Source: Mucisphaera calidilacus (GTDB lineage: Bacteria > Planctomycetota > Phycisphaerae > Phycisphaerales > Phycisphaeraceae). From it: a stretch of DNA of 32,000 bases. Where the stretch lies: the NCBI RefSeq assembly GCF_007748075.1, contig NZ_CP036280.1, positions 330,001 through 362,000 of the forward strand. Direction: 5' to 3'. Positions 1 through 30,771 of this stretch are shown here, piece after piece (the stretch's first letter is position 1; every line of letters starts with the position of its first letter). The notes under the pieces are model-generated. The model did not search any database. It was not told the origin of the DNA and was given only the letters and a program-made list of their open reading frames with translations. The translations under genes were made by a program, and so were the position numbers.

Positions 1-168
1 GCTCGCGACAACGCATTGCCCGATCCCGAGCGACACCGCGGGTCAGGCGACTTCCTCTTCGCTGATGGCCACGCAGCGTCCTATCAGCCCGAGGACATCA
101 CCGATAAATACATCCGCTGGGACAACGTAGACAGTGACATCGTGAATGGTGTCACCGGGCCCCAGTAA
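1..168 (+). CDS. C-terminal end of a DUF1559 / H-X9-DG pseudopilin-like protein (5' part lies outside the window)
   Basis: Frame 1 is open from base 1 to TAA at 166-168 and reads ...ERHRGSGDFLFADGHAASYQPEDI.... His + 9 residues + DG-H matches the C-terminal signature of the four complete prepilin-type genes here. It is absent from the ORF track because it has no start codon. Confidence 0.6.
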   Translation, partial: ARDNALPDPERHRGSGDFLFADGHAASYQPEDITDKYIRWDNVDSDIVNGVTGPQ

Positions 169-185
169 CCGCTTAATCACCCACC

Positions 186-1348: not shown

Positions 1349-4078
1349 ATGAAACCAACGATGCCGTCAGCCACGCAGAAAGCCGAGACGCCGACAGCGT
1401 TCAACGCGCCTCAGTCAGAGCGCCTCGCACACGATGCGCTCGTCAACGAAGCCCGACGATTCATCGCCGTCGCGCACCGCATCGAACACGACGACGACTA
1501 CGCCAACGAGCAACGATTCCACAACGCCACCTATCGCGTCGATGACACCCACGTCATCGAGTTTACGCGCGAGCGTGGCGACAGTCGATACGCACTCGGC
1601 CGTGAAGGCTTCAACCTCTGGCTGTACGCCTCGGGACAGATCCACGCCAACAAAGGCCTCTTCTCGTACTTCCTCAAACCCTCCGAAGGCGGCGAACCCT
1701 CCGCAGCCTGCTTCCTCGGTCTGCTCGATCAACAGGGCTCAACCGAACAGACCGTCCGCCTGCTCCCGCTCGAGCCCGAAGCCGGCCCACAGGCCCAACA
1801 GTTCGCCGTGCTCGGGCCCGAAGCCGCTTGGTACATCACACGCTTCGCCGGACTCGCCGCCGCTGTCCGCGTGTCACTCTCGGCCGATGAACAGATGCGC
1901 TGGAGCACCGCACTCTGGAACGACGCCGGTGCCGACCGCCAGGTCATCCTGTCGACCTACCTCAACCCCTTCCTCCGCCACGGCATACACCCCAGCTCAG
2001 AAGATGTCTGGTTCCGCCGCGGCGATATCATGACCGCCGACGATGGCAGCCGTAACGTGATCATCCGCGTCAACGAAGACATCGATCGCGAAAACTCAGT
2101 CGTCAACCACGGCGTCATTGGCCGATCCCTCCACACCCACGAGGGTGCTGAACTCCTCAGCGAAGCGATCACCACCTCACGAACCAATTACATCGGAGGT
2201 TCTCGGCACACCGCGCACGCCCCCAGGTCCGTACGCAACGGCACGATGAACAGGACCGCATCAGTCACCGAACTCACGGACACCGCCGTCTCCGCCGACC
2301 TGCTCAGGATCCACCTGCCTGCCAGCAGCCTGCTCCGCCAAGAAACCACACTCACCGTCACGCATAACGATCCCCACCACGGCCACTGGCTCAAGCAACA
2401 AGACCGACCCGATGAGGCCGACCGTCGACTCGAACGATTTCGAGCAGACGAAGCTGCACGCCACAACGCCCTCAGCCTGAGAACCATCGGCCTCGAGGCA
2501 TCCGCTAGCGACGCCGTCTTCGGGTCATTCTTCGAGCACCTGAAGCGACAGGTTGATGTCTGCGCCGAGATCCGCGGGTACATGCAGGCCAGCGCCAGCT
2601 CGCTCATCGGCGTGCGTGATGTCTGCCAGGCTATCGAAGCTCAACTCCTCTGGCGGCCCGCCGCCGCGCGAAACAAGCTCCTCGAGGTCTTGGCCTACAC
2701 CGGCCCCGATGGCCGATGCCTACGTCAATACGCGCTGCCAGACAAAGCCGGCCGCCCCGGCCGCGTCGACAGCAGACCCTTCATCGACCAGGGCGTCTGG
2801 GTCATCGCCACCCTAGCCACCTACCTTCGTGCCACCGGCGACCACCCGATGCTCAGTGAACTCGTCGGTTACCACCAACTCGTCGAGACCGACCCGCCCC
2901 ACGCCGTCAAGACCGACGCCGTCGACACAGTCCTCGATCACCTCATCCGAATCGCCGACTACCTCCTCGACCATCGTGACCCCAGCACCGGCTGTCTCCG
3001 CGCGATGTACGGCGACTGGAACGATGCAATCGACGGACTCGGTCTCACCGACGAACCCGGCCAGACCTACGGCAACGGCGTCAGCGTCATGGCCACCCTC
3101 CAGCTCTACCAGAACTGCCTTGAAATGGACGAGCTTCTCGCCAGCAGCGATCACCCGCTTCGCGAGCAGCACCGCGCACGCTACCGCCAGGCCGCCGAAC
3201 ATCTCGCCACCGCGCTCCAGCAGCACGCGATCGCCGCCACCGACACCCATACCCGGAGAATCCTCCACGGATGGGGACACAACCAGGAATACGAGATAGG
3301 CGGCTACCGGGACCTCGACGGCAAAGCCCGCGACGGGCTCGCGGCCAACGCGATGTGGGTTCTCTCTGGCATGGCACAACGAGATCCTCAATACAACCAG
3401 GACATCCTCGAAGCGTTCCAGCGACTTGATGGGCCCTTCGGCCTCAAGACCTTCGCGCCCGGCTTCGGCAGAGATACACGACGGGCCGGACGCATCGGCA
3501 ACCTCCCTCTCGGTACCGCCGAGAACGGAGCCTGCTACGTCCACGCCACCGCCTTCGGCATTATGGCCCTCTTCCGGCTCGGCCAGCCCGACCGAGCGTG
3601 GGAACAGCTGCTCAAGATCCTCCCCTTCGCGATGCCGCAGAGACACGTCTCCCACTCACCCTTCATCATGCCCAACTCTTACAGCCTCATCGATGAGGCC
3701 GGTGCCTTCGGCGAGAGCATGAACGACTGGCAGACGGGCAGCTCCAATGTCGTCCTCAAAACCCTGATCCACGACGCAGCCGGCATTCAACCCACCCAGG
3801 AGGGCATCTGGGTCAACCCGGCAACATGGGCACCCTGTGCCGAGATACATCTCCGCCTCACGCTCCGTGGTCGCCCTATTGAACTCATCTGGCAGCGGGA
3901 GGCAGCCCAAGCACGAACCTTTATCGTCAACGGCGACGTCAAGACCGGCCAGACACACCCCCACAGCGGCGTTGCCCGGCTGAGACTCACCTACGACCAG
4001 CTCAAGACCACCGCCAACACCATCACCGTTCTCGATCAGGCTCCGGCTGAGCACACATGCGTGCCTCAAAATTATTAG
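1349..4078 (+). CDS. GH94-like glycoside phosphorylase/hydrolase with an (alpha/alpha)6 barrel (cellobiose/chitobiose/beta-glucan phosphorylase superfamily)
   Basis: ATG at 1349 is preceded by GAGGAA. The GTG-1253 extension in the track overlaps the ROK 3' end. Motifs seen: YGDWNDAIDGLG (GH94-type catalytic Asp loop), ENGACYVHATAF and QTGSSNVV. No signal peptide, so the protein is predicted cytoplasmic. Confidence 0.7.
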   Translation: MKPTMPSATQKAETPTAFNAPQSERLAHDALVNEARRFIAVAHRIEHDDDYANEQRFHNATYRVDDTHVIEFTRERGDSRYALGREGFNLWLYASGQIHANKGLFSYFLKPSEGGEPSAACFLGLLDQQGSTEQTVRLLPLEPEAGPQAQQFAVLGPEAAWYITRFAGLAAAVRVSLSADEQMRWSTALWNDAGADRQVILSTYLNPFLRHGIHPSSEDVWFRRGDIMTADDGSRNVIIRVNEDIDRENSVVNHGVIGRSLHTHEGAELLSEAITTSRTNYIGGSRHTAHAPRSVRNGTMNRTASVTELTDTAVSADLLRIHLPASSLLRQETTLTVTHNDPHHGHWLKQQDRPDEADRRLERFRADEAARHNALSLRTIGLEASASDAVFGSFFEHLKRQVDVCAEIRGYMQASASSLIGVRDVCQAIEAQLLWRPAAARNKLLEVLAYTGPDGRCLRQYALPDKAGRPGRVDSRPFIDQGVWVIATLATYLRATGDHPMLSELVGYHQLVETDPPHAVKTDAVDTVLDHLIRIADYLLDHRDPSTGCLRAMYGDWNDAIDGLGLTDEPGQTYGNGVSVMATLQLYQNCLEMDELLASSDHPLREQHRARYRQAAEHLATALQQHAIAATDTHTRRILHGWGHNQEYEIGGYRDLDGKARDGLAANAMWVLSGMAQRDPQYNQDILEAFQRLDGPFGLKTFAPGFGRDTRRAGRIGNLPLGTAENGACYVHATAFGIMALFRLGQPDRAWEQLLKILPFAMPQRHVSHSPFIMPNSYSLIDEAGAFGESMNDWQTGSSNVVLKTLIHDAAGIQPTQEGIWVNPATWAPCAEIHLRLTLRGRPIELIWQREAAQARTFIVNGDVKTGQTHPHSGVARLRLTYDQLKTTANTITVLDQAPAEHTCVPQNY

Positions 4079-4243: not shown

Positions 4244-4855
4244 ATGAGTACCCATGAAACTAATAACCAGCAAAGATTAATGGTTTATCTGGCCGCGGCC
4301 GGGCTGGGCGCCTTTGCCTATGGGCAGGACGTCTCCGCCGGCATCATCTACACGCCTGTACAGCCCGCTGTCACTCTCGTTCAATACCCCGGCTCACCAT
4401 CTGCCTTCAACATTGACTTTGACAATGACGGCACCCCCGAAGGCGCCATCATCAACTCCAGCGTCAACATGCAGGCACGCTTCTTCCCGCCCGGGCGCAC
4501 ACTGGCCGGCAGCGGAAGCTACTACGCCACCTCCTTCGCGCCCGGTGCCGTTATCGACGCCACCGCCGACACGACCGGCGGCGCAAACCTGATGACCAAT
4601 CCAAACTACAACGCCAACTTTGTCGGACAGGGCAATTACATCGGTTACCGCTTCGAGATCGACGGCAACACCCACTACGGCTGGGTCCAGGTCGATGTCA
4701 CAGATAACCTGATCAACGCCATCATCACCGGGTATGCCTACGAGTCCACACCGGACACCGGCATCGTCGCCGGAGCCATCCCCGAGCCCACGTCACTCGC
4801 ACTGCTCGCAGCCGGTGCCGGTGCGCTCGGCCTACGCCGCGGCAACGCAGCCTGA
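4244..4855 (+). CDS. Secreted PEP-CTERM sorting-domain protein, function unknown
   Basis: GAGGAGG lies upstream of the ATG. There is an N-terminal signal-like segment (LMVYLAAAGLGAFAYG). The C-terminus is IPEPTSLALLAAGAGALGLRRGNAA, i.e. PEP motif, hydrophobic helix and basic tail. It is a paralog of the next gene. Confidence 0.8.
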   Translation: MSTHETNNQQRLMVYLAAAGLGAFAYGQDVSAGIIYTPVQPAVTLVQYPGSPSAFNIDFDNDGTPEGAIINSSVNMQARFFPPGRTLAGSGSYYATSFAPGAVIDATADTTGGANLMTNPNYNANFVGQGNYIGYRFEIDGNTHYGWVQVDVTDNLINAIITGYAYESTPDTGIVAGAIPEPTSLALLAAGAGALGLRRGNAA

Positions 4856-4943: not shown

Positions 4944-6089
4944 ATGAACGCAGACACCAGCAAGAGAATCCTCGGCTACACCACCGCCGCCACCGTCGGC
5001 GCTTTCGGCGCCGGCCAGACCGCCACGGCCGCCGTGATCTACACCGACCTTGTCCCCGACATCACCGTCGGTGCGGTCCCCGGCACAGACGAAACCTTCG
5101 CCATCGACTTCAACGGTGACGGCGTCGACGACGCCCTCGCCCTTCGCGTCATCATCAATAGTTTCTCCAACAACGTGCAGTTCCGAGCTTTCGGCTACGA
5201 CCGCATCGATGACCCCGACGCTCCCGACATCCTCCCATCCGACATCCCCGGCGAGTGGGTCGAGCAGAACTGGGTCTTCTCCAATGGACCCGCCGACAAA
5301 GGGCCCAACGTTACCTATTACGCACGCTCGTTCCCCGCTGGAACCACCATCGACGACACCCTGAACCGAACCGGCTTCAAAGACCCCAAGCCGCCCACAG
5401 GCGGCTACGGCATCGCCGCTCGTGCCCTCTTCGGCAACCCCTATAACTTCATCAACACCGGCGGCTTCCTTGGCTTTCAGTTCGAGATCCCAGATGACCC
5501 CATCGCCGCCCTCGATGAGGATGGCATCGGCCAGGACCTGGCCGTCGGCGGCAGCACCACCCACTTCGCATGGCTTGAAGTCGACATCGTCTTCGACGAG
5601 AACACCGAGCCTCAAATCATCCTCAAGAGTTGGGCGTACGAGTCCACACCCGATACCGCCCTCGTTGCCGGCGAGATCCCCGTGGGTGTCCCCGGCGACT
5701 TTAACGGCGACTCCGTCGTCGACGCCGCCGACATCGATATCCTCCTCACCGACCTGGGGGACCCTGCACTCGACCTCGACGGCGACTCCGATTCCGATCA
5801 GGACGACGTCGCCTTCCTCCTCGGCGACATCCTCGGCACCGCCGCGGGTGACGCCAACCTCGATCAGGCCGTCGACCTCCTGGATCTCAGTGCCCTCGCC
5901 GCCAACTTCAACGTCTCAGGCGTCGGCTGGGCATCGGGCAACTTCAACGGCGACGCCATCGTCAACCTTCTCGACCTCAGCACCCTCGCCGACAACTTCG
6001 GTTTCAGCGCACCCGCCATCCCCGAGCCCACCTCCCTCGCACTCCTCGCCGCAGGGGCCGGGGCTCTCGGCACACGCCGGCGACGCTAA
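4944..6089 (+). CDS. Secreted PEP-CTERM protein with dockerin-type repeats; paralog of the 4244-4855 gene
   Basis: The start is taken at ATG 4944 (MNADTSKRILGYTTAATVGAFGAGQ). The track start at 4734 overlaps the previous gene. Shared blocks are AAVIYTD, THFAWLEVDI and SWAYESTPDTALVAGEIP. These are followed by GDFNGDSVVDAADIDILL, GDANLDQAVDLLDLSALAANF and GNFNGDAIVNLLDLSTLADNFG, and finally IPEPTSLALLAAGAGALGTRRRR. Confidence 0.8.
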   Translation: MNADTSKRILGYTTAATVGAFGAGQTATAAVIYTDLVPDITVGAVPGTDETFAIDFNGDGVDDALALRVIINSFSNNVQFRAFGYDRIDDPDAPDILPSDIPGEWVEQNWVFSNGPADKGPNVTYYARSFPAGTTIDDTLNRTGFKDPKPPTGGYGIAARALFGNPYNFINTGGFLGFQFEIPDDPIAALDEDGIGQDLAVGGSTTHFAWLEVDIVFDENTEPQIILKSWAYESTPDTALVAGEIPVGVPGDFNGDSVVDAADIDILLTDLGDPALDLDGDSDSDQDDVAFLLGDILGTAAGDANLDQAVDLLDLSALAANFNVSGVGWASGNFNGDAIVNLLDLSTLADNFGFSAPAIPEPTSLALLAAGAGALGTRRRR

Positions 6090-6121: not shown

Positions 6122-8140
6122 ATGGGATGCATCCGTATGCGTGAGACGCCTGCGACGAGAAAGAGGGTCTTGCTGATCGGCTGGGACGCCGCCGACTGGC
6201 AGATGATCGACCCGCTGCTCCAAGCAGGCGCGATGCCGAACCTTGAGGCATTGATCGGCCGAGGTGTCCGCGGCAACCTCGCCACCATACGACCCATCCT
6301 CTCGCCGATGCTCTGGACCTCCATCGCCACAGGCAAACGTGCCGACAAACACGGCATCTGCGGATTCACCGAACCCAAGCCCGACGGCACAGGCATCCGG
6401 CCCGTCACGAGCACCAGCCGCGCCACCAAAGCCGTCTGGAACATCCTCAGCCAGAAGGGCTATACCAGTGCCGTCTGCTCATGGTTCGCCTCTCACCCCG
6501 CAGAGCCCATCAAGGGCTCCGTCGTCACCGACCAGTTCGCACGCCTGCTTGCCGTCCTCGACCACGATATCGACCCCGGACCAGGGACCTTTCATCCCCC
6601 CGAACTCGCCGAGCAACTCAACCCCTACCGCGTCGACCCCCGGATGCTCGACGCCCAAACGCTCCTGCCCTTCGTCCCCGCTGCCGCCGAGATCGAGCAG
6701 GAGCAGGACGGCCGACTGATGACCCTGGCGCACCTCATCGCCAAGGCTTCCACCATCCACGCTGCCGGCTGCCACCAACTCCGAGAAACCGACTGGGACT
6801 TCGCCGCGATCTACTACGACGCCATCGATCACTTCGGGCACCAGTTCATGCCCTACCACCCGCCCGCCGTCTCGGGCATCAGTGAACGCGACGCCCGGAT
6901 CTACGGCCCCGTAATGGAAGGCTGCTACCGCTTCCACGACATGATGCTCGGGGCCCTCACCAAGCTCGCGGGTCCCGATACCGACATCCTCCTGATCAGC
7001 GACCACGGCTTCTTCAACGATCAGGCACGACTCGGCACCGACGCAACCGAAGACCCCGAACATTGGCATCGACCCTTCGGCGTTGTCGTAGCCGCAGGAC
7101 CCAGCTTCAAGCAGAACGAAACGCTCTACGGCGCCACCATCCTCGACGTCACCCCCACCATCCTCTCGATCTTCGACCTACCGCTCGGGGCCGACATGGA
7201 CGGCCGCCCCTGGATCGAAATCTTCAACGAACCCGTCACACCCGATCGCGTCTTTAGCTGGGACAAGATCGAAGGCGAGTCCGGGTACCACCCCCCCAAC
7301 GCCGAAGAAGACGACCCCGTCGCCAGCGCCGAAGCCGTCGCCCAGCTCGTGGCCCTCGGCTACATCGATGACCCGGGCGAGGACGTCACCACCGCCGTTC
7401 GCAACACAACCCGAGACCTCCTGACCAACCGTGCCTCCGCGCTCGCCGACAGCCGACGAGCCTCGCTGGCCATCCCGATCTGGCAGAAGCTCATCGAAGA
7501 CAACCCTGACGAAGACGCCTTCCGGCTGCAACTCGCACGCACCGCCCTCGTCGTCGGACAACTCGACCTCTGCACCCAGCAACTCGAGGCACTCAAACCA
7601 GAGCACGCCGACACGCCCACCATCCTCCTGCTCGAAGCCGAAGTCCTCCTCCTCAGACGACAACCCGAAAAGGCGCTCGAAAAAGTCCACCAGGCCAACA
7701 AAGCAGAACCCGAATCCGTCCGCATCCTCAACGCACTCGGGCGGATCTACCTCAGAACCAACCAGCACCAGCAAGCCCTCGAAGCCTTCGAACACAGCCT
7801 CGCACTCGAACCCGAAAGCCCCGTCGTCCACAACGGACTCGCTCAGGCCTACAACAACCTCCAACAGCACCAACAGGCCGTCGAACACGCCCTGCAGTCG
7901 ATCGGCTACGCACACCAGTACCCCGCCGCTCACCTCAACCTCGGCATCGCTCTCGCACAATCCGGACGGGAAGACGCCGCCATCCAGGCCCTCGAAGTCT
8001 GCCTCGGCATGTCCCCGCAGAACAGGATCGCACACCAATGGCTCGCTAAGCTCTACGCACGGGACAACCGCAACCAAGACAAGGCACGAGAGCACGACCT
8101 CATGGGACAAACCGTCCTCACACGTGGAAACATCCAATGA
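6122..8140 (+). CDS. Alkaline-phosphatase-superfamily (type I phosphodiesterase/nucleotide pyrophosphatase-like) domain fused to C-terminal TPR repeats
   Basis: N-terminal half: KRVLLIGWDAADWQ, LSPMLWTSIATGKRADKHGI, YYDAIDHFGHQF and LLISDHGF (metal-ligand-like motifs). C-terminal half: repeated 34-aa TPR-like units (ALNALGRIYLRTNQHQQALEAFEHSLALEPESP...). No signal peptide. An alternative ATG lies at 6137. The stop overlaps the next start (ATGA). Confidence 0.65.
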   Translation: MGCIRMRETPATRKRVLLIGWDAADWQMIDPLLQAGAMPNLEALIGRGVRGNLATIRPILSPMLWTSIATGKRADKHGICGFTEPKPDGTGIRPVTSTSRATKAVWNILSQKGYTSAVCSWFASHPAEPIKGSVVTDQFARLLAVLDHDIDPGPGTFHPPELAEQLNPYRVDPRMLDAQTLLPFVPAAAEIEQEQDGRLMTLAHLIAKASTIHAAGCHQLRETDWDFAAIYYDAIDHFGHQFMPYHPPAVSGISERDARIYGPVMEGCYRFHDMMLGALTKLAGPDTDILLISDHGFFNDQARLGTDATEDPEHWHRPFGVVVAAGPSFKQNETLYGATILDVTPTILSIFDLPLGADMDGRPWIEIFNEPVTPDRVFSWDKIEGESGYHPPNAEEDDPVASAEAVAQLVALGYIDDPGEDVTTAVRNTTRDLLTNRASALADSRRASLAIPIWQKLIEDNPDEDAFRLQLARTALVVGQLDLCTQQLEALKPEHADTPTILLLEAEVLLLRRQPEKALEKVHQANKAEPESVRILNALGRIYLRTNQHQQALEAFEHSLALEPESPVVHNGLAQAYNNLQQHQQAVEHALQSIGYAHQYPAAHLNLGIALAQSGREDAAIQALEVCLGMSPQNRIAHQWLAKLYARDNRNQDKAREHDLMGQTVLTRGNIQ

Positions 8141-9219: not shown

Positions 9220-9403
9220 CGGCCAGTGCCAGCGAACTGTTTCTTCCACCGGAAAAGGGGCCGCTCGTACACCCTAAGCATCCGGTAGACCTGCGCCTCT
9301 CCCCGTATCCTGATCCATTCGTGATGCTCGTCTTCAGCGATATTTCGGCATTAGATTTGGAAACCAAGAAAGTACTGCAGGCCTGACTCTAAATGAGAGA
9401 ATT

Positions 9404-9473
9404 GCGGATACTACGAGAAGTGCGAACTGCTACGAACACACGCGAAACTTGCGAAGAACGCGAATCTTGCTAT
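9404..9473. repeat. Phased array of short direct repeats (RCGAA core every 9-10 bp) in an AT-richer non-coding patch
   Basis: Cores gcgga 9404, acgag 9413, gcgaa 9422, acgaa 9432, gcgaa 9442, gcgaa 9451, gcgaa 9460 and degenerate gctat 9469. Spacings are 9, 9, 10, 10, 9, 9 and 9. It can also be read as about three 19-bp units (CTACGA-N5-GCGAA-type). Confidence 0.6.
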
Positions 9474-9540
9474 CCTGCATTTCAGCTAAGGCTTGCAGCG
9501 TTTTTCGACGCCCTTGGATATCTTTTTCCCAAGCTGAATG

Positions 9541-9567: not shown

Positions 9568-9590
9568 TTCTTTAGCTCTTCTGACGATCA

Positions 9591-10235: not shown

Positions 10236-10260
10236 GGAGAAGGTGGTGTGGACGGAGTAT

Positions 10261-13129: not shown

Positions 13130-13161
13130 GGCGGTCAAACAGAATGAACAGATATCCGGTC

Positions 13162-22355: not shown

Positions 22356-23321
22356 ATGCGAACAATCAGGCACAGTCTTGCATTCACGCTGATCGAACTG
22401 CTCGTGGTGATATCCATACTCGCGCTGTTGATTGGGCTGCTGCTGCCGGCCCTCCGTTCTGCCAGAGAGACGGCACGAACCGCGGTCTGTCTGGCCAACA
22501 TGAAGTCTTATGGCATCGGGCTTGATGTTTATGCGCTGGAGCACAACGGTTGGCTCGCAGGCCCTTACACCTCGGGCAACGGCAATCGTCGTTGGGGGCA
22601 GGCGGATGTCTTCAACTGGGCGGAGGAGACCGCTTCCAATGCTCCGTCTTACGCGTATGACTGGGTATCACCATCCATGAGCGATATCATGGGCGGATTG
22701 CCTCGGCAACGTGCGAAGCGACTCGTGGCTATTCTCAACAGCGAATTATCATGTCCCACCAATGATATTGAGTACGGATCATCCAATGGGCTCTCCGGTG
22801 AGGACGTTTACTCGGATCCCTACGGGCCCAGTGATGCGGTCATACGCAATGCGAATGGCGGCGAGCTTCCGCAGCTAGTCGACTACTCTCTCATCCTCGG
22901 ATTTCACGAGACACGATACGGTCCTTACGAGGCTGATTCGGGTTATCAACCCAACTTGAATCAGATCGGGAGACCATCGGCCAAGGCATCGGTACAGGAG
23001 GGTGCTGACCCCAGGTTTCTTGATGTACGCGGCTTCGATCTTGGGAGCGAGTACAACGATTACTCGGGAGGTCCGCTCTGCCATCGTGGTGCCGCATCCT
23101 ATACGGATGGCAGCACTTTCAGAAAGTCCGAACCCGGCAAGGTCACGGATCTGGCGCAAACCTATGCATTCCGTCATCCCAACAAGACGATTAATACTCT
23201 CTTTTTCGACGGTCACGTGGATAATCAGGATTCCTACGCGGCCATAGGCGGGTTTGCCCAGTACTTTCCTGAGGCATTTGTGCCGTACGAGTTCTATCGT
23301 GATCTGTACGGGTTGGACTAG
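22356..23321 (+). CDS. Prepilin-type N-terminal cleavage/methylation protein, DUF1559 / H-X9-DG family (pseudopilin-like)
   Basis: HSLA|[42 protein letters not shown] at the N-terminus, with Ala rather than Gly at the -1 position. C-terminal [15 protein letters not shown]. Confidence 0.85.
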
Positions 23322-23512: not shown

Positions 23513-24772
23513 TTAGAGCATCAGGGCGAGGCGGTCATCGTCGGTGAAGCAGGCGAGTGTGCTCCATCCCCAGAAGGGGTTGAGTCCACATCCTTCGCCG
23601 GTCTCGGCGTTGTAGTACTCGCGGAAGCCGGCCTTGTTCACCAGTTCCATGGTTGCCGTGTCGATCCGCTTCGCTTCGTCGTGGTATCCGTAGTGTCTGA
23701 GTCCCCGGGCGAGCATGTAGTTGGTGGGGACCCATGTGTTGGCGCGCCAGCTGCAGCCGATGTCAGCGGGCAGCGGGGTTTGGCTGTACCAGCGTTCGGT
23801 TCGGGCGAGTGTCGGGACGGGGTAGGGCGACGCGAAGCCGTTGTTGTCAAGCAGGTGTTCATGGACCATCCGCCTGGCCTGTTCGGGGGTGGCAACGCGA
23901 GCCCAGAGTGTGCTGAAGGCGGCGATGCTACGCACGCGGATCTGTTTGTCGCTGACAGGCGTCCAGAGTTGCGAACCCCGCGGGGCAGAGTCGCAGAAGG
24001 TATCGGATTGGGCGCGGAGGTTGCCGTCGTAGAAGAACCCGGTCTCTTCATCCCAGAGTCGTTGACGGATTCGGGATGCTCGTGCCTCTGCCTGCTGCTC
24101 GCGGGCTGATGCCTGCTCGTCCTGCCCTGCCAGTCGGAGGAGGGCGGCGAGTGCGCGGCACTCACGGACGAGGTAGCAGTTGAGATCCACGCCCTGGCTG
24201 ACGCGGTCGAGCCAGTAGCCAGCCCGTTCATGCTGGTTGTCCATGCCGGTGTGGGGTGCGCTCATCCAGTCGCTGAGGCCCGAGTTCGTGCTGTCCATCG
24301 TGTTGAGCCAGTAGTCGAGGTATCGCTGTAGTCCTGTGAGCAGGCCGGGTTCGAGAAGCCAGTCGATGTTGTTGCGGGCCACGGTGCTGAGGTGCGCGAT
24401 CTGGGCGAGAAAGGGCTTGACGTGCTCGTGGTCATGGGTCGGTGTTGAGGGGACAGAGCGTGCGATAAAACCGTCTTCGCGTTGATGGTTGAGAAAGATC
24501 CGGATGGCGTTCTGGGAGAGGTGCGCCGGCCAGTCCATTGCGATGAGGATGAGGGTGTCAAAGAACTGGTCCCAGTCGTAGAGCGTGTGGTAGGCGTAGC
24601 CAGTGAAGTACTCGAGTCCGGTGGTGGGGTCGGTGATGACGCCCGTTCTCATGAGCTGTTCAATCTCGTTAAGTTGTTTTCTAGCAATAAAAAAGGAATC
24701 GGGTGGTGTCCATGTGCCCGGTGTGATTGGTGTGGCTTGGGGGATGTTGAGGGATGTGTGTATCTGGTTCAT
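23513..24772 (-). CDS. Cytoplasmic (alpha/alpha)6-barrel glycoside hydrolase, GH63/GH37-like (MGH1/trehalase-type)
   Basis: Blocks seen: YFTGYAYHTLYDWDQFFD, HQREDGFIARS, GLSDWMSAPHTGMDNQ, RLWDEETGFFYD, WRANTWVPTNYMLARGLRHYGY and FREYYNAETGEGCGLNPFWGWSTLA. No signal peptide. Confidence 0.6.
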   Translation of the reverse strand: MNQIHTSLNIPQATPITPGTWTPPDSFFIARKQLNEIEQLMRTGVITDPTTGLEYFTGYAYHTLYDWDQFFDTLILIAMDWPAHLSQNAIRIFLNHQREDGFIARSVPSTPTHDHEHVKPFLAQIAHLSTVARNNIDWLLEPGLLTGLQRYLDYWLNTMDSTNSGLSDWMSAPHTGMDNQHERAGYWLDRVSQGVDLNCYLVRECRALAALLRLAGQDEQASAREQQAEARASRIRQRLWDEETGFFYDGNLRAQSDTFCDSAPRGSQLWTPVSDKQIRVRSIAAFSTLWARVATPEQARRMVHEHLLDNNGFASPYPVPTLARTERWYSQTPLPADIGCSWRANTWVPTNYMLARGLRHYGYHDEAKRIDTATMELVNKAGFREYYNAETGEGCGLNPFWGWSTLACFTDDDRLALML

Positions 24773-24834
24773 CGTTGGGCATCCTCTTGAAAAAGGATCA
24801 GAAAGTGATTGACACGGCCTGAATCGGCGTTTAT

Positions 24835-24862
24835 CTTACACGTGTAATATTTCACGTGTAAG
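24835..24862. promoter_or_regulatory. Candidate operator: 10-bp perfect inverted repeat CTTACACGTG-N8-CACGTGTAAG containing two CACGTG-centred sites
   Basis: TTACACGTGTAA (24836-24847) is a perfect 12-bp palindrome, and TTCACGTGTAA follows at 24851-24861. The element lies in the 128-bp divergent intergenic region between the GH63-like gene (start 24772, minus strand) and the LacI-family gene (start 24901, plus strand). Confidence 0.5.
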
Positions 24863-24900: not shown

Positions 24901-25935
24901 ATGTTTGTGGCGACCATCAAGGAAATCGCGAAGCTTGCTGGCGTTTCTCACGTCACCGTTTCCAAGGTTCTCGGCGGCGAGATACCGGTGAGTCGTCCTG
25001 CTGCTGTCCGTCGTGCGAAGAAGATTCAGCAGATCGCGGACGAATTGGGCTACCGCCCCAACCACACGGCACAGGCGCTCCGCACCGGTCGGACCGGGCT
25101 GATCGCGGTGCTGGGTAATACGCCGTTGAGTTTTGACGACCACAATCTTGAGGAAGCGAACATTTTGCGGCGTGTGGCCGCCATGCTCCGCGAGGAGGGG
25201 CTGAATCTTTCTGCCCAGCTCTGTGACCGAGCGGAGAAGAACGGGTTACTCCCGCCTTGGCGTGTGGACGCGGCGATTCTGATCGCTGCCTATTCATCCG
25301 ACCAGACCGAGGATGTCGAGAAGGACGGCCTGCCTTATGTCGCCTTCAACGGCGAGTGCGGTCCGAACGGCTCGTCGGTTCAGTTCGATGACAAGGCCGG
25401 TGTGCTTATGGCGATGCGCGCGTTGCGTCGTGTCGGGCACGAGCGGATCGCCTACATGTCGAACTACAAGCCTTACGACCACCGCAGTGTTCCGCTGCGG
25501 CTCGAGGGTTATCACGAGGCGATGCGGGAAGCGGGTCAGGAGCCCCTGCCGACCTATCCCAACGGGGGTGTTTCGGAGTCGGAGGTTGCCGAGCACCTGG
25601 GCATGCTGGTCCGTGAGCATGGCTGCACGGCGATTGTCTGCTGGGACCCGTGGGTGGCGCTTTATGCCTACCGCGCGGCGCGTGAGATCGGTCTGGACTT
25701 GCCGGGCGACCTCTCGGTGATCGCCTTCAACGACACGCCGCTCGGCAGTCAGGCGCTCCAGCCGCGTCTGTCGGCGGTCACGCGTCCTGTTGAGGCGACG
25801 GCACGGGCGATGGTTGAGTTGCTTAACGAGCGTATGTCGTCGGACGTTGTCGCGGCGCGCAGCATCACCGTGACGCCTGACGTCGTGGTGCGTGAGTCGA
25901 TTGCGCCGCCTCGCCAGCGAGGGGGTGTGTCTTGA
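24901..25935 (+). CDS. LacI/GalR-family transcriptional regulator
   Basis: HTH: ATIKEIAKLAGVSHVTVSKVLGG...IQQIADELGYRPNHTAQALRTGRTGLIAV. Effector domain: GHERIAYMS and GLDLPGDLSVIAFNDTPLG. Confidence 0.85.
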   Translation: MFVATIKEIAKLAGVSHVTVSKVLGGEIPVSRPAAVRRAKKIQQIADELGYRPNHTAQALRTGRTGLIAVLGNTPLSFDDHNLEEANILRRVAAMLREEGLNLSAQLCDRAEKNGLLPPWRVDAAILIAAYSSDQTEDVEKDGLPYVAFNGECGPNGSSVQFDDKAGVLMAMRALRRVGHERIAYMSNYKPYDHRSVPLRLEGYHEAMREAGQEPLPTYPNGGVSESEVAEHLGMLVREHGCTAIVCWDPWVALYAYRAAREIGLDLPGDLSVIAFNDTPLGSQALQPRLSAVTRPVEATARAMVELLNERMSSDVVAARSITVTPDVVVRESIAPPRQRGGVS

Positions 25936-26012: not shown

Positions 26013-26651
26013 ATGTTCAGCCATTGTTTCACGGGTTCGGTCTCGACTCTCACGGTTGTGTTCGCTCTAGCGATCCCGGGTGGGGTCAGCGCCGACGTTG
26101 TTTTCATGGAAGATTTCGAGTCAGCGGACACGAGTGGCGGCAATGCGACGATGGCACAGATTACCGTGACTGGCGGCTACAACGCTCCGAACATCATTGG
26201 CAATTTTGCGACGAACCTGCCTCAGTCGTCGAACTTCATCTTTCTGGACACCGATTTTTTCTTCACCGATGACGTGCCCAGTCCGGTGTCGACGGAGGTT
26301 CTCTACACGCCCGATCCCGCGGTCGTCGCCTTGCCGGGGTACAGCTACACCCTGATGTTCGAGGCGGCGGGCAACTTCGGTGCGCCCGGCCCGCTGACGT
26401 ACGCCTTGCTGGTCGACGGCGTCGAGGTGGCCACGAACACGGTGGATCTGAATGTCGGGCCTGTGGTGCCGATTTCCTTCTCCGGGGCGTCTGGGGCGAT
26501 CGCGATTTCGCTGGTTGGGGAGGCGACCGCCGGTGGCTACGGCCAGATTCAGATCGACAACATCACGATCGATGAGGTGGCTGTTCCCGAGCCTGCGGGT
26601 TTCGTGCTTCTTGCGAGCGGTCTGGCGTTGGTTCGCCGTCGTCGCTCCTGA
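26013..26651 (+). CDS. Secreted PEP-CTERM sorting-domain protein, function unknown
   Basis: AGGAGG at 26001-26006 precedes ATG 26013. The track start at 25932 overlaps the lacI-type 3' end. Signal peptide STLTVVFALAIPGGVSAD. C-terminus VPEPAGFVLLASGLALVRRRRS. Confidence 0.75.
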   Translation: MFSHCFTGSVSTLTVVFALAIPGGVSADVVFMEDFESADTSGGNATMAQITVTGGYNAPNIIGNFATNLPQSSNFIFLDTDFFFTDDVPSPVSTEVLYTPDPAVVALPGYSYTLMFEAAGNFGAPGPLTYALLVDGVEVATNTVDLNVGPVVPISFSGASGAIAISLVGEATAGGYGQIQIDNITIDEVAVPEPAGFVLLASGLALVRRRRS

Positions 26652-26776: not shown

Positions 26777-27586
26777 ATGCTTGCATCTACGCCCGGACGC
26801 CGAAGTCACGGCGGTTTCACGCTGATTGAGCTTCTCGTCGTGATCTCGATCATTGCGTTGCTGATCGGTATCCTGCTCCCGGCGCTGGGTGCGGCCCGTG
26901 CTTCGGCGCGGAATGTCGGGTGTTTGTCGGGCATGCGTCAGCTGGGTATCGCCTTGTTCAGCTACGCGACCGACCACGACGATTATTTCGTTTACGCCCA
27001 GTATCGCCAGAACGGTTCTTCGCCTTGGGAGAACTGGTCCACGATCCTTCAGCAGCTTGATTACGCGACCGGGCCTTTTCTGGAGAACGCGGATGACTTG
27101 CCGGATCCGGACAGTGTTTATTTCTGTCCGGACGCTGACCCGGACCGCTACGCCTCATCGGGGTGGCCGGCGACGGATCACTTTGACACGTGGAACGAGC
27201 AGGCCTGGCGTCTGGACACGGGCGGCGGCTTCCGCGATGTCTGGTACGGCATCAATGCCGGTCCGGCGGGCAACACGGACAGCTACCCGTTTATCTTCGT
27301 GGACAACGGTGACAATCCCGACCAGAACAAGCCGAGTCGCATGTCGATTGTGAGCCGGCCGAGCAGCACGGTTGCGATTTTTGATGGCTGGTCGCTGCAT
27401 TACGGCTGGCCGGCGACGATCAGCCCGACGCGGCATCCCAACGAGAACGTCAACGTTGCTCATCTGGATGGTTCTGTTCGAGGTTACAGCGACAGTGTTT
27501 TGCCTTATGGCGGGGAGTTGTACACGGAGGCGTACCGCGAGAAGGTTGCCAACGGTGGTCCGGAATGGACGCTTGACTATCGGTAG
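26777..27586 (+). CDS. Prepilin-type N-terminal cleavage/methylation protein, DUF1559 / H-X9-DG family (pseudopilin-like)
   Basis: SHGG|[44 protein letters not shown] at the N-terminus. C-terminal [15 protein letters not shown]. Confidence 0.85.
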
Positions 27587-27646: not shown

Positions 27647-29890
27647 ATGCGGCACCCTCTGACTATGTATACGGTTCTCTTCGTCTGCCTGTGCCTGAAT
27701 CTCATGGCTTCGAGCGGCTCAGCGGCGGGAGACGCGCATCGGCCTGAGCACCGCCGATACGGCGACTGGACTTCGTGTCGCATTGGTGGCGGCGGGTATA
27801 TCCTCGGCGTGCGGTACACGCCTGATCCGGATCGCCTGTACGCCTGGACCGACGTCGGAGGTGCTTACCGCTCCGACGATGCGGGGCGGACCTGGAGGCA
27901 CATCACCTGGACGCTGCCTTATGGCGGGTCTACCGAGTCGCGGGGGATGATGTACGTTCGTGATCTGCTGCCTGATCACCGGGATCCCGATCGTGTGGCG
28001 ATCGTCATTGGTTATCACTGGTCGCCGCCTTATGGCGTGATGATTTCTGACGACGCGGGGCGGTCGTGGCGTGCGGTTCTGGAAGAGGTATGGGTTTGCG
28101 GTGACGATGAAACCCGGATGGATGGTTCTGTTCTTGTGCGTGATGCTCGGCGGCCCGAGACGATCTGGTGTGCCGGGATTCGTGACGGCGTGTTTGTCAG
28201 CCGGGACAATGGCGAGACCTGGGCGTCTCTGGGTGGTCCCGAGACTCAGCCGACCGACCTGCTGGTTGATCGTTCGGACTCGGGTCGGCTCTGGCTGTCC
28301 GGTCTGGCGATGCACCGCGGGGTGATCGAGCGCTACGCGAACACGCCCGATGGTCAGCTGAAGCTGCCGGGTGGTTTATGGCGGACGGCGGACCACGGCG
28401 GGAGTTGGGAGCGGCTTGTCGGCGGCCGTGACGTTCGGGGTTTGGTTCAGGATCCTGTCGTTTCGTCGACGCTGTACGCTATTTTTGATGATCATCGTTG
28501 GATCATGCGGTCTGAGGATGCGGGAGAGCGTTGGCATCGTTACGACACCGGTCTCGATATCGGCAGCCCGAGTCCCTGGGGTCCTCACCCGCACCGCTAC
28601 CAGGCTCTCACGGTTGCGCACGGCGTGGTTTACGCGACGTCCACACGTGGTCAGCACTACAGGTTGGATCGTGCGCGTGATCGGTGGGTCAGGCTGTCGG
28701 GGCCTGAGAACGTCCGGGAGCCCGAGGGCTGGTGGGGTGCCACGCTCGATGACCCTACCCACGGGACGGATAGTTGGGTCAGCACGATGGCCTCGGTAGC
28801 GCGCCTGACGGTGAGTCCCCATAATCCGAGTGATCGATGGATGACTGACTGGTACTCGGCGTACCACAGCGGCGATGGTGGTCGAACCTGGACCAACCGG
28901 TCCGAGGGTTTCGAGGTCACTTACATCGACGCTCTGGAGCAGGACCCGACTGATCCGAGCATCGTCCACCTTGGCATGGCGGACAACGGTTATTTTCGTT
29001 CGGATGACGCGGGTCTCAGCTTTCGCGGTTTTTCCAACGACACCCCGATCACCAACAACATCAAGAGCCTGAGTGTCCCGAAGGCCAACCCGCGTCGCGT
29101 CTACGCCGTGGGCCCGAATCCGCCCGGAGGCGGCTGGTACGCGGGGCACGTCTTCATCTCGAACGATCGCGGCTCGACGTGGCGGTCATCGAGTATGGAT
29201 GGTCTGCCCGAGATCACCGAGGCCGGGCATCGTGCGCACACGATCCTCGCTCTCGATGATGCACCCGACACGGTCTTCCTGACCGTAACCCAGTCGGTTG
29301 TTGAGGGTGGCGGCGGGCTCTACCGGAGTCTGGATGGGGGTGAGAGTTGGGTGTGGTTCGGCGAGGGCTTGCCTGGCGGTGTCGCGTTCTATCGCCACGA
29401 GTCGTGGCGAGGTGGCAAGGAGTTGGCGGTTTCACCCGACGGTGTGATGCTGACGCAGAGTATTCAGAACCGGCTGCTCTACAGGCGTCGGCCTGGTGAC
29501 GGGGGTTGGGTTCGTCTGGACTTTCCGTTTCATGGCGATCTCAACGACTTGAGGGCGGATCCGCATCGTGCGGGGCGTTTCTACGCGGCGGTGTTGCAGG
29601 ACGGGGTGTACCGCACGGATGACGCTGGATCGAGTTGGTTGCGGCTCACTACTCCGACGCGTGCGCCGGGTGCCTCGCAGCTGGTGGTTGACCGCGTCGT
29701 TCCCGGCCGTCTTGCCGCGGGCACCGCCAACGGGGTGATCCTGAGCAGGGACAGCGGCAGGTCCTGGGTGCATCTGGATCCTTCGCTCCCGGGTCGTATC
29801 GATTGGAACAAGGGTGCCTTCGTGGGCGACCGGCTGGTCGTCGGCTCGGGTGGACACGGCGCCTTCTGGATTGACTTGCGGCGGCGATGA
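27647..29890 (+). CDS. Secreted BNR/Asp-box repeat beta-propeller protein (GH74 / sortilin-Vps10-like tandem propeller)
   Basis: Signal peptide VLFVCLCLNLMASSGSAAG. Eleven Asp-box-like motifs (S/T-x-D-x-G-x-S/T-W): SDDAGRTW, SDDAGRSW, SRDNGETW, TADHGGSW, SEDAGERW, SGDGGRTW, SDDAGLSF, SNDRGSTW, SLDGGESW, TDDAGSSW and SRDSGRSW. The 747-aa length fits two 7-bladed propellers. Confidence 0.7.
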   Translation: MRHPLTMYTVLFVCLCLNLMASSGSAAGDAHRPEHRRYGDWTSCRIGGGGYILGVRYTPDPDRLYAWTDVGGAYRSDDAGRTWRHITWTLPYGGSTESRGMMYVRDLLPDHRDPDRVAIVIGYHWSPPYGVMISDDAGRSWRAVLEEVWVCGDDETRMDGSVLVRDARRPETIWCAGIRDGVFVSRDNGETWASLGGPETQPTDLLVDRSDSGRLWLSGLAMHRGVIERYANTPDGQLKLPGGLWRTADHGGSWERLVGGRDVRGLVQDPVVSSTLYAIFDDHRWIMRSEDAGERWHRYDTGLDIGSPSPWGPHPHRYQALTVAHGVVYATSTRGQHYRLDRARDRWVRLSGPENVREPEGWWGATLDDPTHGTDSWVSTMASVARLTVSPHNPSDRWMTDWYSAYHSGDGGRTWTNRSEGFEVTYIDALEQDPTDPSIVHLGMADNGYFRSDDAGLSFRGFSNDTPITNNIKSLSVPKANPRRVYAVGPNPPGGGWYAGHVFISNDRGSTWRSSSMDGLPEITEAGHRAHTILALDDAPDTVFLTVTQSVVEGGGGLYRSLDGGESWVWFGEGLPGGVAFYRHESWRGGKELAVSPDGVMLTQSIQNRLLYRRRPGDGGWVRLDFPFHGDLNDLRADPHRAGRFYAAVLQDGVYRTDDAGSSWLRLTTPTRAPGASQLVVDRVVPGRLAAGTANGVILSRDSGRSWVHLDPSLPGRIDWNKGAFVGDRLVVGSGGHGAFWIDLRRR

Positions 29891-30771
29891 TGATTGGAGT
29901 TCTGATGATGACAAGAGCGAAGGCGGTGGCCCTGTCTTTTCTGGCGATCCTGACGCTGGTGTTGTTCGGCACGGCGGCGCGGGCGGAGGGGGCGATACCT
30001 TTCCCGGAGGATCTGGTTCTTGAGGCTGCGCGTGACATGCAACGCCCCCACGAGGCAGTGCCCAGTGGCACGGCTGCTCTGGACTGGCACGCTGGCCCGA
30101 GGCTGGCGTGGGGCGAGCACCCTCCGGATCACTGGCGTGCGATCACATTCTGGGGGCAGGTCTACGAGGCTGAGGGGGGCAACCCTTCGGGCAATAGTCG
30201 CGTTCAGATCCGGGATTTACGGCTGGCGGTCAAGAGCCTCTCGGATGGTCGATGGCATCTGCTGCAGGACACTTCCGGTTTCGAGGGTGCTTTCTTTCGA
30301 GAGGACTTCACGGACAATGACAGCTGGGACGCCTGGCTTCACGCCGAGCAAGAGGGTGCCTCGGTCAGGCTCCCCAATGGTCAGGGGCGCAACTTTCACT
30401 TCTGGCCTGATGTGGACCGCGCGACGTTCGCGCTTGCGGACATCGACGAGGTGATGGTGAGTGTGGACGCCCGTCTGATTGTCCATGATCCATCGGGACC
30501 TGACGATCGCGATCAGGCTCGATTGATGATGAGTGTCGGCGCCGATTACTGGCTGAGTCAGACGGCGGTGTGGGACGGCTGGAAGACCAACGGTGACGTC
30601 GGTATCGGCCGTTTCGCGTTCATCGGGCGTGATTGGCAGACTTACACGATGACCACGCTCACGGTTGCCGAGGCGCGGGATGAGTTTCCCGTGCCCGAGC
30701 CGGGGGCCGCGTCGCTTGTTGCCATCTGCCTTGGAACGCTCTGGTGTCGACGGAAGGGGGGTTGTTCGTGA
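29887..30771 (+). CDS. Secreted PEP-CTERM sorting-domain protein, function unknown
   Basis: ATGA overlap with the upstream stop. An alternative start lies at 29905 (MMTRAKAV...). Signal peptide ALSFLAILTLVLFGTAARAEG. C-terminus VPEPGAASLVAICLGTLWCRRKGGCS. Confidence 0.7.
   Translation: MMIGVLMMTRAKAVALSFLAILTLVLFGTAARAEGAIPFPEDLVLEAARDMQRPHEAVPSGTAALDWHAGPRLAWGEHPPDHWRAITFWGQVYEAEGGNPSGNSRVQIRDLRLAVKSLSDGRWHLLQDTSGFEGAFFREDFTDNDSWDAWLHAEQEGASVRLPNGQGRNFHFWPDVDRATFALADIDEVMVSVDARLIVHDPSGPDDRDQARLMMSVGADYWLSQTAVWDGWKTNGDVGIGRFAFIGRDWQTYTMTTLTVAEARDEFPVPEPGAASLVAICLGTLWCRRKGGCS

Follow-up and report, generated by a model that had tools for sequence, protein, structure and literature searches.

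We describe here four regulator-headed, operon-like units (A to D) in a stretch of 32,000 nucleotides from Mucisphaera calidilacus (Planctomycetota, Phycisphaerae; contig NZ_CP036280.1, positions 330,001 to 362,000), hereafter called the window, whose own numbering is used throughout. In these units, genes for pseudopilin-like proteins of the prepilin-type DUF1559/H-X9-DG family stand beside genes for proteins ending in a PEP-CTERM sorting signal, genes for sugar-type regulators and genes for glycoside hydrolases (GH). The association of pseudopilin, PEP-CTERM, regulator and GH or sugar symporter genes was shown to be real, non-random and conserved, and the units are gene clusters for carbohydrate-active enzymes (CAZymes) with an undescribed accessory pair made of a pseudopilin and a PEP-CTERM protein. 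We favor, with a probability of about 0.55, the reading that they are four substrate-inducible glycan-utilization operons, each of which would provide a cluster-specific subunit for a shared fiber together with exosortase-anchored lectins or enzymes.

Pseudopilin and PEP-CTERM genes are paired in four units

Combining the listing of open reading frames (ORFs) with family scans, we found in the window all the genes that an earlier note on this stretch had named, each at the position and on the strand given there. The numbers claimed were also recovered: five prepilin-type DUF1559/H-X9(10)-DG genes, one of them partial, and eight PEP-CTERM genes. PEP-CTERM genes were called with a pattern (at the C terminus, V, I or T before PEP, followed by a hydrophobic stretch and a tail rich in Arg) scanned in the six frames; it matched exactly these eight genes and nothing further. 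Four sugar-type regulators are present, of the ROK, AraR, OmpR and LacI types, and the enzymes are GH94-, GH16-, GH51-, GH63- and GH74-like, as supported by family scans and by matches to solved structures. Each complete pseudopilin gene forms a same-strand pair with a PEP-CTERM gene, at measured distances of 80, 57, 84 and 125 bp that fit the announced range of 57-125 bp. Intergenic gaps inside the units range from 17 to 170 bp, and two junctions show a 4-nt overlap. The pairing of regulators with enzymes is coherent, the AraR-type regulator going with GH51, LacI with the GH74-like enzyme, and ROK with GH94 and GH16. The composition of the units is given below in the order of transcription.

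Unit A (+ strand): partial DUF1559 gene, ROK, GH94-like, PEP-CTERM, PEP-CTERM, phosphodiesterase/TPR, GH16 with dockerin and PEP-CTERM.
1-168, + strand: 3' end of a DUF1559-like gene (…RHRGSGDFLFADGH…, H-X9-DG), the motif being read directly in the translation; the window edge cuts the gene.
186-1328, + strand: ROK regulator (NagC/Mlc-like, N-terminal winged helix-turn-helix) that starts unit A; PF00480, E=2e-25; in NCBIfam it comes closest to NagC and Mlc, both below cut-off.
1349-4078, + strand: enzyme of the GH94 superfamily (glycan phosphorylase-like), without a signal peptide by eye; PF17167, E=2e-28.
4244-4855, + strand: PEP-CTERM protein of 203 aa; TIGR02595, 25.2 bits (cut-off 16), and pattern; paralogue of the following protein (BLASTP, E=6e-24).
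4944-6089, + strand: PEP-CTERM protein of 381 aa with dockerin-like repeats; PF07589, 21.6 bits; TIGR02595, 27.3 bits; resembles the dockerin regions of the proteins starting at 8137 and 19268 (BLASTP).
6122-8140, + strand: type I phosphodiesterase/nucleotide pyrophosphatase with TPR repeats; PF01663, E=2e-26; many TPR families.
8137-9219, + strand: GH16 beta-glucanase with a dockerin-like module and a PEP-CTERM anchor, which ends unit A; PF00722, E=2e-11; PF00404; pattern.

Unit B (- strand): GntR with a periplasmic binding protein (PBP) domain (AraR-type), DUF1559, PEP-CTERM, terminator-like hairpin; the GH51-like gene is divergent from the regulator.
11975-13138, - strand: regulator with a GntR helix-turn-helix and a LacI-type periplasmic-binding fold (AraR architecture), which starts unit B; PF00392, PF13377, PF00532.
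11152-11880, - strand: DUF1559/prepilin-type pseudopilin-like protein of 242 aa, H-X10-DG; PF07596, 39.6 bits; PF07963, 32.5 bits.
10343-11071, - strand: PEP-CTERM protein of 242 aa, with signal peptide, concanavalin-A-like jelly roll and PEP-CTERM helix; PF07589, 24.2 bits.
10266-10285, - strand: hairpin resembling an intrinsic terminator (8 pairs, 7 of them G-C, then a T run), just 3' of unit B.
13498-15144, + strand: GH51-like alpha-L-arabinofuranosidase bearing a signal peptide of the lipoprotein type; matches solved GH51 structures (E=2e-13); Pfam matches are weak and ArfA (E=2e-22) is below cut-off.

Unit C (+ strand): OmpR-type winged-helix/phytase-like regulator, DUF1559, PEP-CTERM, PEP-CTERM, DUF1559; the GH63/MGH1-like gene is convergent.
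16243-17979, + strand: membrane-bound one-component regulator that starts unit C, with an OmpR/PhoB-type winged helix, a hydrophobic segment and a phytase-like beta-propeller; PF00486, E=1e-17; PF13449, E=2e-31.
18146-19210, + strand: DUF1559/prepilin-type pseudopilin-like protein, H-X9-DG; PF07963, 22.6 bits; PF07596 (18.0 bits) and TIGR04294 (13.9 bits) both below cut-off; alternative ATG start at 18155.
19268-21190, + strand: PEP-CTERM protein of 640 aa with dockerin-like repeats; PF00404; pattern.
21297-22271, + strand: PEP-CTERM protein of 324 aa; PF07589, 19.1 bits, slightly under cut-off; pattern.
22356-23321, + strand: DUF1559-like pseudopilin-like protein, H-X10-DG; PF07963, 23.3 bits; alignment; 35% identical to the 18146 protein (BLASTP, E=5e-33).
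23513-24772, - strand: MGH1-like glycosidase of the GH63 clan, without a signal peptide by eye, convergent with unit C; PF22422, E=9e-40; PF01204, PF03200.

Unit D (+ strand): LacI, PEP-CTERM, DUF1559, GH74-like, PEP-CTERM.
24901-25935, + strand: LacI-family regulator that starts unit D; PF00356, PF13377.
26013-26651, + strand: PEP-CTERM protein of 212 aa, a near-orphan; pattern; TIGR02595, 15.5 bits (cut-off 16).
26777-27586, + strand: DUF1559/prepilin-type pseudopilin-like protein of 269 aa, H-X10-DG; PF07963, 31.9 bits; PF07596, 26.3 bits; 100% identity with an NCBI protein of M. calidilacus.
27647-29890, + strand: BNR/Sortilin-Vps10 beta-propeller, GH74-like, with signal peptide; PF15902, PF02012; solved GH74 xyloglucanases match at E=7e-17 and 9e-13.
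29887-30771, + strand: PEP-CTERM protein of 294 aa, its gene beginning within the GH74-like one (4-nt overlap of start and stop); pattern.

As the earlier note had also stated, we detected no exosortase, prepilin peptidase, secretion ATPase, TonB receptor or ATP-binding cassette (ABC) transporter among the scanned ORFs of the window, and no secretin either. Family scans of the window proteins gave no SusD member, and neither tRNA genes nor Rfam families were found in the window.

The pairing is enriched in independent loci

The window alone proves little, and we therefore took independent loci around relatives of the pseudopilins: 80 from a collection of one genome per species, 80 from metagenomes, and nine look-ups on long contigs chosen blind to the neighboring genes. 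These are a sample among the matches listed, with up to 600 pattern matches per scan, and they represent loci rather than whole genomes. The set comprises 169 distinct loci with 188 prepilin-type genes, and 22 of these loci also hold PEP-CTERM genes, which were called with the pattern; gene boundaries are approximate in some high-GC loci. When the positions of the 34 PEP-CTERM genes were compared with random placement within each locus, 14 were found within 300 bp of a prepilin-type gene (2.5 expected) and 20 within 1 kb (5.6 expected). None of the 5000 permutations reached either value, and the enrichment within 300 bp was about five- to six-fold. A permutation check of the kind proposed in the earlier note, made within these loci of the Planctomycetes-Verrucomicrobia-Chlamydiae (PVC) bacteria, places the adjacency above chance.

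That sugar-type regulators accompany the pairs had been claimed as well, and the loci outside the window agree. Among 15 PBP-type regulators identified by profile, 11 lay within 2.5 kb of a pseudopilin gene when 5.6 were expected (P~0.003), and 14 were upstream of the pilin-like gene.

The prepilin-type genes that have a PEP-CTERM neighbor come, where the taxonomy is known, mostly from Phycisphaerae, with one Lentisphaerae metagenome-assembled genome (MAG), one Verrucomicrobia MAG and unclassified Planctomycetota MAGs. The link between DUF1559 and PEP-CTERM is lineage-restricted.

Similar cassettes occur in related bacteria

The order of regulator, PEP-CTERM, DUF1559 and GH or sugar symporter genes recurs in Phycisphaera mikurensis, in several Phycisphaerae MAGs and in one Lentisphaerae MAG. 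These loci, designated by the letter L and a number, are organized as follows.

L081 (P. mikurensis): LacI, PEP-CTERM (264 aa), a 232-aa protein, DUF1559, GH10, GH10.
L169 (MAG): PBP-type regulator, PEP-CTERM (266 aa), PEP-CTERM/CBM96, DUF1559, GH10.
L062: LacI, PEP-CTERM, DUF1559, GH10, PEP-CTERM/dockerin.
L168: LacI, PEP-CTERM, PEP-CTERM, DUF1559, SSF symporter, PEP-CTERM.
L167: GntR/PBP, PEP-CTERM, PEP-CTERM, PEP-CTERM/Spherulin4, divergent from DUF1559 and another PEP-CTERM.
L170: AraC/PBP regulator divergent from DUF1559, PEP-CTERM, an 858-aa protein, GH130 and, farther on, GH95.
L002: LacI divergent from PEP-CTERM, PEP-CTERM, DUF1559, BNR-like, a LamG/FG-GAP protein, SSF symporter.
L044 (Lentisphaerae): LacI, PEP-CTERM, DUF1559, a pectate-lyase-like protein.
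L093: GntR/PBP, PEP-CTERM (1058 aa), DUF1559.

The first PEP-CTERM proteins of L081 and L169 share a motif starting GVITFDPADG and are therefore likely orthologues. Genes for SSF or MFS transporters lie near the pseudopilin gene in L002, L167 and L168.

Another arrangement was seen in loci of the Planctomycetia type, in which the DUF1559 gene is followed by a gene for a small lipoprotein of about 150-180 aa with a lipobox and a weak similarity to CarboxypepD_reg (L022, L024, L051, L065, L067, L071, L073, L078, L095, L109, L118, L123, L145 and L147; an example is L051:11233-11691). Members of this lipoprotein family adjoin a DUF1559 gene on the same strand in 15 cases out of 17, and sugar regulators or CAZymes were not seen as a rule in these loci. 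The small lipoprotein is apparently a second conserved, undescribed partner of DUF1559. A different context was found in a Phycisphaeraceae MAG (L166:10001-16204), where DUF1559 is followed by genes for a 1382-aa CobN/Mg-chelatase-like protein, MotA/ExbB and DUF2149, unlike the glycan cassettes.

The pseudopilins combine a near-invariant helix with a variable head

No other paralogue family of planctomycete genomes is as large as DUF1559, which has no assigned function; P. limnophila has 68 copies, two of which are essential (PMC10632474). The four complete pseudopilin genes of the window all score above the Pfam cut-off for PF07963 (N_methyl) and also above that of TIGR02532. The prepilin motif, read directly, consists of G-1, F+1 and E+5 and is of the class III signal peptide type. 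For PF07596, whose cut-off is 23.3 bits, two proteins are above (39.6 and 26.3 bits), one is below (18.0 bits) and one has no match, the matches covering positions 2-61 of the 268 of the profile. All four nevertheless align with proteins that NCBI names DUF1559, and their closest database relatives carry PF07596. The 55-aa fragment encoded at 1-168 gave no match in Pfam and NCBIfam searches.

The C-terminal motif varies in its spacing. H-X9-DG is present in the 1-168 and 18146 proteins, the 11152, 22356 and 26777 proteins have H-X10-DG, and the H-X9-DG model TIGR04294 matched one protein only (13.9 bits for a cut-off of 19). In the family alignment R219, H220, N226, D231 and G232 are conserved, as is a set of polar residues around the H-X9-DG region. 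The presence of two invariant cysteines is consistent with an extracytoplasmic location.

At the N terminus the best NCBIfam match is to GspG (TIGR01710), with 27.6-41.8 bits over the N-terminal 47-59 residues only; that of the 11152-11880 protein reaches E=1e-10. Since the whole-protein cut-off is 88.85 bits, an identity as the major pseudopilin GspG of the type II secretion system (T2SS) was ruled out. These matches place the window proteins in the type IV pilin-like superfamily and, as divergent members, in DUF1559; their N terminus resembles that of GspG.

The conservation of this N terminus is striking when set against the rest of the proteins. Of the first 27 mature residues, 22-26 are identical among the four window paralogues, and 13-17 of the identical ones use different codons, which points to strong purifying selection and not to gene conversion. 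The globular parts are only 25-35% identical, even between cassettes sharing an enzyme family, and BLAST comparison of these domains by cassette type (e.g. GH10) gave no clear orthologous groups (25-30% identity). A conserved assembly helix bearing a hypervariable head is what would be expected of subunits that enter one fiber machine with different surface tasks. In the AlphaFold2 (AF2) model of the 26777-27586 protein (predicted local distance difference test score, pLDDT, 88.9; predicted template modelling score, pTM, 0.84), a helix of about 50 residues (16-66) is followed by an alpha/beta domain. Among solved structures, the family profile aligns with nothing beyond helix alpha1 of type IV pilins and GspG. 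A solute-binding-protein or enzyme fold for the DUF1559 domain is unsupported by Foldseek, which returned no match below E=3.

The PEP-CTERM partners share a sorting signal and no common fold

By profile, four of the eight genes have Pfam or TIGR02595 support above cut-off and the others narrowly miss it. The 4244, 4944 and 10343 proteins score above the cut-off of PF07589 or TIGR02595, and the 21297 and 26013 proteins fall slightly below; signal peptides were judged by eye. The AF2 model of the 10343-11071 protein (pLDDT 82) shows a jelly roll of the concanavalin-A-like lectin/glucanase type, and Foldseek aligned it best with GH16 glucanases, legume lectins and PL7 lyases (E=3e-7 to 1e-5, TM-score ~0.5-0.57). 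As the GH16 catalytic motif ExDxxE is not found in its sequence, a lectin-like role is the most likely one for this modeled protein. An exhaustive search of 1.84 billion representatives gave 12 relatives, and six of the seven retrieved were PEP-CTERM-tagged or had a degenerate PEP tail.

Two of the PEP-CTERM partners in the window, each identical to a protein of M. calidilacus, have essentially no relatives among 5.8 billion proteins; for that encoded at 26013-26651, the search returned itself and one weak match. The other partners, in the window and in related loci, contain dockerin-like repeats, GH16, CBM96 or Spherulin4 domains. The idea of a pair of two conserved families was rejected, searches for homologues of the partners having returned essentially the query proteins alone. 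By these comparisons the partners are of mixed folds and appear as fast-evolving near-orphans, not as one family, and what is linked is therefore the pseudopilin family with a class of sorting signal.

Dockerin type I-like repeats stand directly before the PEP-CTERM anchor in the window proteins 8137-9219, 4944-6089 and 19268-21190, and also in L062:13079-14980 and L093:6534-9710. We know of no cohesins in this organism.

Regulatory sites and unit boundaries

Upstream of the LacI start of unit D, and on the same + strand, a promoter-like site (24809-24837, 10 matches out of 12) is followed by a 28-bp palindrome, CTTACACGTGTAAT|ATTTCACGTGTAAG (24835-24862). Its 14-nt arms are 93% complementary, without a spacer and with a central CG in each half, and the half-site occurs without mismatch nowhere else in the window. 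This palindrome looks like a candidate tandem LacI-type operator of unit D. The other regulator-proximal intergenic regions of the window contain weak inverted repeats only.

Units A and B are separated by a boundary at which the following element was found.

9822-10301, - strand: fragment of a phage-type integrase, from its C-terminal part; PF00589, E=4e-8, with only positions 125-168 of the profile matched.

This fragment sits at a switch in GC skew. The composition changes at about 9300-10300, where the cumulative skew has its minimum (~9.5-10 kb), and at third codon positions the GC skew lies between -0.5 and -0.7 in unit A and at about 0 to +0.18 in unit D, both being on the + strand. The switch could be a rearrangement or inversion boundary, the edge of an acquired segment or a replication-related switch; we looked for a cluster of DnaA boxes there and found none, and no replication origin is therefore claimed. 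Between units B and C, the gene-poor gap 15145-16242 contains an ORF (15321-15689, - strand) that is a fragment resembling ORF-3 of plasmid pRiA4b (PF07929, E=7e-13), which indicates mobile-element debris between the cassettes.

Inside the beta-glucan unit, the gene at 6122-8140 fuses a phosphodiesterase/nucleotide-pyrophosphatase domain to TPR repeats. The TPR part has a faint likeness, far below cut-offs, to PrsT (the XrtA/PEP-CTERM TPR protein) and to PilW, which is probably generic TPR similarity. Beyond the units, an ORF on the + strand (30774-32000), which continues past the window end, codes for a sugar aminotransferase of the DegT/DnrJ/EryC1 type (E=4e-100). Two long antisense ORFs, 30642-31424 and 31437-31853, are probably spurious.

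A model for the units and its alternatives

The glycan-utilization reading given at the outset can be put as a series of steps. Gene order, the promoter-like site and the palindrome suggest that an inducing sugar would relieve the regulator and allow the unit to be transcribed. As members of their family, the PEP-CTERM proteins would cross the inner membrane by Sec export and be processed by an exosortase encoded elsewhere; once at the surface, they may bind or cut the polymer, as suggested by their families and by the lectin-like model. A prepilin peptidase would cut the pseudopilin, whose near-invariant helix would then enter a shared machine, similar to a type II secretion system or a type IV pilus (T4P) and encoded elsewhere, and the fast-evolving head would give the fiber its cluster-specific function. 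The pseudopilin would most likely pair with the co-encoded anchored protein, either bringing it to the surface or displaying it there. The GH94 and GH63-like enzymes, presumed cytoplasmic, would complete the breakdown. We favor such a partnership in export or display because the adjacency is tight and close to one-to-one, and because loci of the Planctomycetia type pair the same family with a different anchored protein without sugar genes.

Several observations count against this model. Shuffling the order of the 26 genes inside the window put a PEP-CTERM gene beside all four complete pseudopilins in 7% of the trials (P=0.07), because PEP-CTERM genes are very dense there. Outside the window, the close pairs are same-strand in ten cases out of 14 and opposite-strand in four, and the order of the two genes is not constant. 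The adjacency is conserved in relatives, mostly Phycisphaerae, but only 14 of the 188 prepilin-type genes (~7%) sampled across PVC bacteria have a PEP-CTERM neighbor. Given this figure and the lipoprotein partner found elsewhere, DUF1559 as a whole is not tied to PEP-CTERM or to glycans. Of the nine Phycisphaerae homologues looked up without bias, three (L082, L085 and L166) lie in loci without the full cassette. Among the scanned ORFs, the window is devoid of secretion or pilus machinery, prepilin peptidase and exosortase, and searching the PDB with the 26777-27586 model brought up no solved relative below E=3.

Some of these points would suit the view that there is no functional link at all, the multi-copy families sharing secreted-protein regions in which gene density and mobile-element shuffling create neighbors. 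The within-window permutation (P=0.07), the unrelated, near-orphan PEP-CTERM partners, the integrase and PRiA4 fragments between the units and the homologue loci without the cassette all go in this direction. Pure chance is however disfavored by the adjacency statistics, with a roughly five- to six-fold enrichment within 300 bp over 22 loci that none of 5000 permutations reached. A gene order repeated across genera, the likely orthology of the PEP-CTERM partners found in L081 and L169, the polarity of the regulators (14 of 15 upstream) and the fact that the four window pairs are not recent duplicates point the same way, and we hold this view to be very improbable. It is also improbable, if somewhat easier to defend, that the pseudopilin is a membrane-tethered periplasmic protein, its helix being an inner-membrane anchor and its head an oligosaccharide-binding domain or a scaffold for enzymes or a symporter, with no fiber involved. 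The Pfam identifier SBP_bac_10 hints at such a role, the window holds no fiber machinery, SSF or MFS transporters lie beside the pseudopilin gene in L002, L167 and L168, and a faint, non-significant match to a family 1 solute-binding protein was obtained (E=0.065). The selection acting on the assembly helix makes it less likely, since a plain anchor needs neither 22-26 identical residues out of 27 nor G-1/F+1/E+5 under strong purifying selection; moreover, Foldseek gave no solute-binding-protein fold (no match below E=3) and the profile matches pilins and GspG only.

A closer competitor, which we still regard as rather unlikely, keeps the fiber and gives the binding of glycans to DUF1559 itself: sugar-induced paralogues would act as glycan-binding pilins in retractable fibers that pull polysaccharide towards or into the periplasm, the PEP-CTERM proteins being merely co-regulated surface lectins or enzymes. 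Dextran binds the pili-like fibers of Planctopirus and Gemmata, and it has been proposed that whole polymers are taken up (PMC5394234, PMC12078418). The hypervariable globular domain on an invariant assembly helix, the placing of pseudopilin genes under sugar regulators, and the SSF symporter gene directly or closely downstream of the pseudopilin in L002 and L168 agree with it. It leaves unexplained, however, both the tight one-to-one adjacency with an anchored protein and the lipoprotein pairing without sugar genes in Planctomycetia-type loci; in addition, no carbohydrate-binding fold was recognized in the DUF1559 model, and the published fibers come from Planctomycetia, not Phycisphaerae. 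We propose more tentatively still than the glycan-utilization model, and with some doubt, a wider extension of it, in which the Phycisphaerae DUF1559 proteins would be sugar-inducible, substrate-specific subunits of a single T2SS/T4P-like fiber which, with their cognate PEP-CTERM-anchored lectins or enzymes, would constitute the device for capture or display in a third kind of polysaccharide utilization locus (PUL) and the basis of the planctomycete "fishing rod".

Significance and comparison with known systems

In the available literature we found no paper linking DUF1559/H-X9-DG with PEP-CTERM, sugar regulators or CAZyme clusters, and the cassette layout is the first concrete, testable functional context for this family. 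The conserved operon yields specific inducible candidate genes, with arabinan, xyloglucan and beta-glucan as predicted substrates, and suggests a possible route by which PEP-CTERM proteins reach the cell surface. The cassette is also a marker for annotating glycan-utilization loci in Phycisphaerae genomes and MAGs.

A CAZyme gene cluster, in the dbCAN sense, associates a CAZyme with a transcription factor and/or a transporter within a few genes. This is what we found for ROK with GH94 and GH16, for GntR/PBP with the GH51-like gene and for LacI with the GH74-like gene. Likeness to the SusC/SusD PULs of Bacteroidota lies in the substrate-specific clusters with a local regulator, surface glycan-binding proteins, surface-anchored endo-enzymes and intracellular exo-enzymes, of which there are many per genome. 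Unlike them, the window units have neither a SusC-like TonB-dependent transporter nor a SusD-like lipoprotein, use PEP-CTERM anchoring instead of lipidation and possess a pilin-like gene; their regulators are LacI, GntR, ROK or ToxR-like, whereas those of SusC/SusD PULs are hybrid two-component systems (HTCS) or extracytoplasmic function (ECF) sigma factors. Identity with a SusC/SusD PUL was rejected, no adjacent SusC/SusD pair being found among the window proteins. The "PUL-like" glycan capture put forward in the earlier note therefore stands as a functional analogy, with the lectin-like model of the 10343 protein and the CBM96 partner of L169 in its favor, but without SusC/SusD or a transporter in the window.

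Plant-cell-wall enzymes are secreted by T2SSs such as the Out system of Dickeya and the Gsp system of Cellvibrio. With the pseudopilins GspG-K of these systems, the window proteins share the prepilin leader (G-1/F+1/E+5), a GspG-like helix and an association with secreted carbohydrate-active proteins. Their genes, in contrast, are scattered singly in catabolic operons and not grouped in a gsp operon, the DUF1559 globular domain exceeds that of GspG two- to three-fold in size and has no solved relative, and a single genome may carry tens to hundreds of members of the family (P. limnophila has 68, PMC10632474).

The same holds for the sorting signal, where both common and distinct traits are seen. 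The PEP-CTERM/exosortase sorting system was reportedly described by Haft et al. in 2006, and it is known to be associated with exopolysaccharide loci and regulators such as PrsK/PrsR. The window proteins conform to it by their N-terminal signal peptide, C-terminal PEP motif, transmembrane helix, Arg cluster and heterogeneous passengers; they differ in that their genes lie in catabolic CAZyme operons beside pseudopilin-like genes. The DUF1559 and lipoprotein pairs of Planctomycetia-type loci resemble the window pairs in having a same-strand neighbor that encodes a small exported, membrane-anchored, beta-rich protein, which in their case is a lipoprotein with weak CarboxypepD_reg similarity and not a PEP-CTERM protein.

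For the capture and import of polysaccharides by PVC bacteria without SusC/SusD, the dextran-binding fibers are the sole prior lead (PMC5394234). Boedeker et al. (2017) reported that dextran binds planctomycete pili-like fibers emerging from crateriform structures (PMC5394234), and "dedicated pilin-like proteins" have been postulated for these fibers in a review (PMC12078418). The fibers are pili-like, bind polysaccharide and belong to the same phylum as Mucisphaera; they were described in Planctomycetia, with no reported genetic link to CAZyme clusters, whereas the window provides candidate inducible subunits in Phycisphaerae. If the wider reading proposed above were true, it would give the molecular basis of the planctomycete "fishing rod", and the cassettes would stand, as a third kind of PUL, alongside the SusC/SusD PULs and the ABC-type loci of Gram-positive bacteria.

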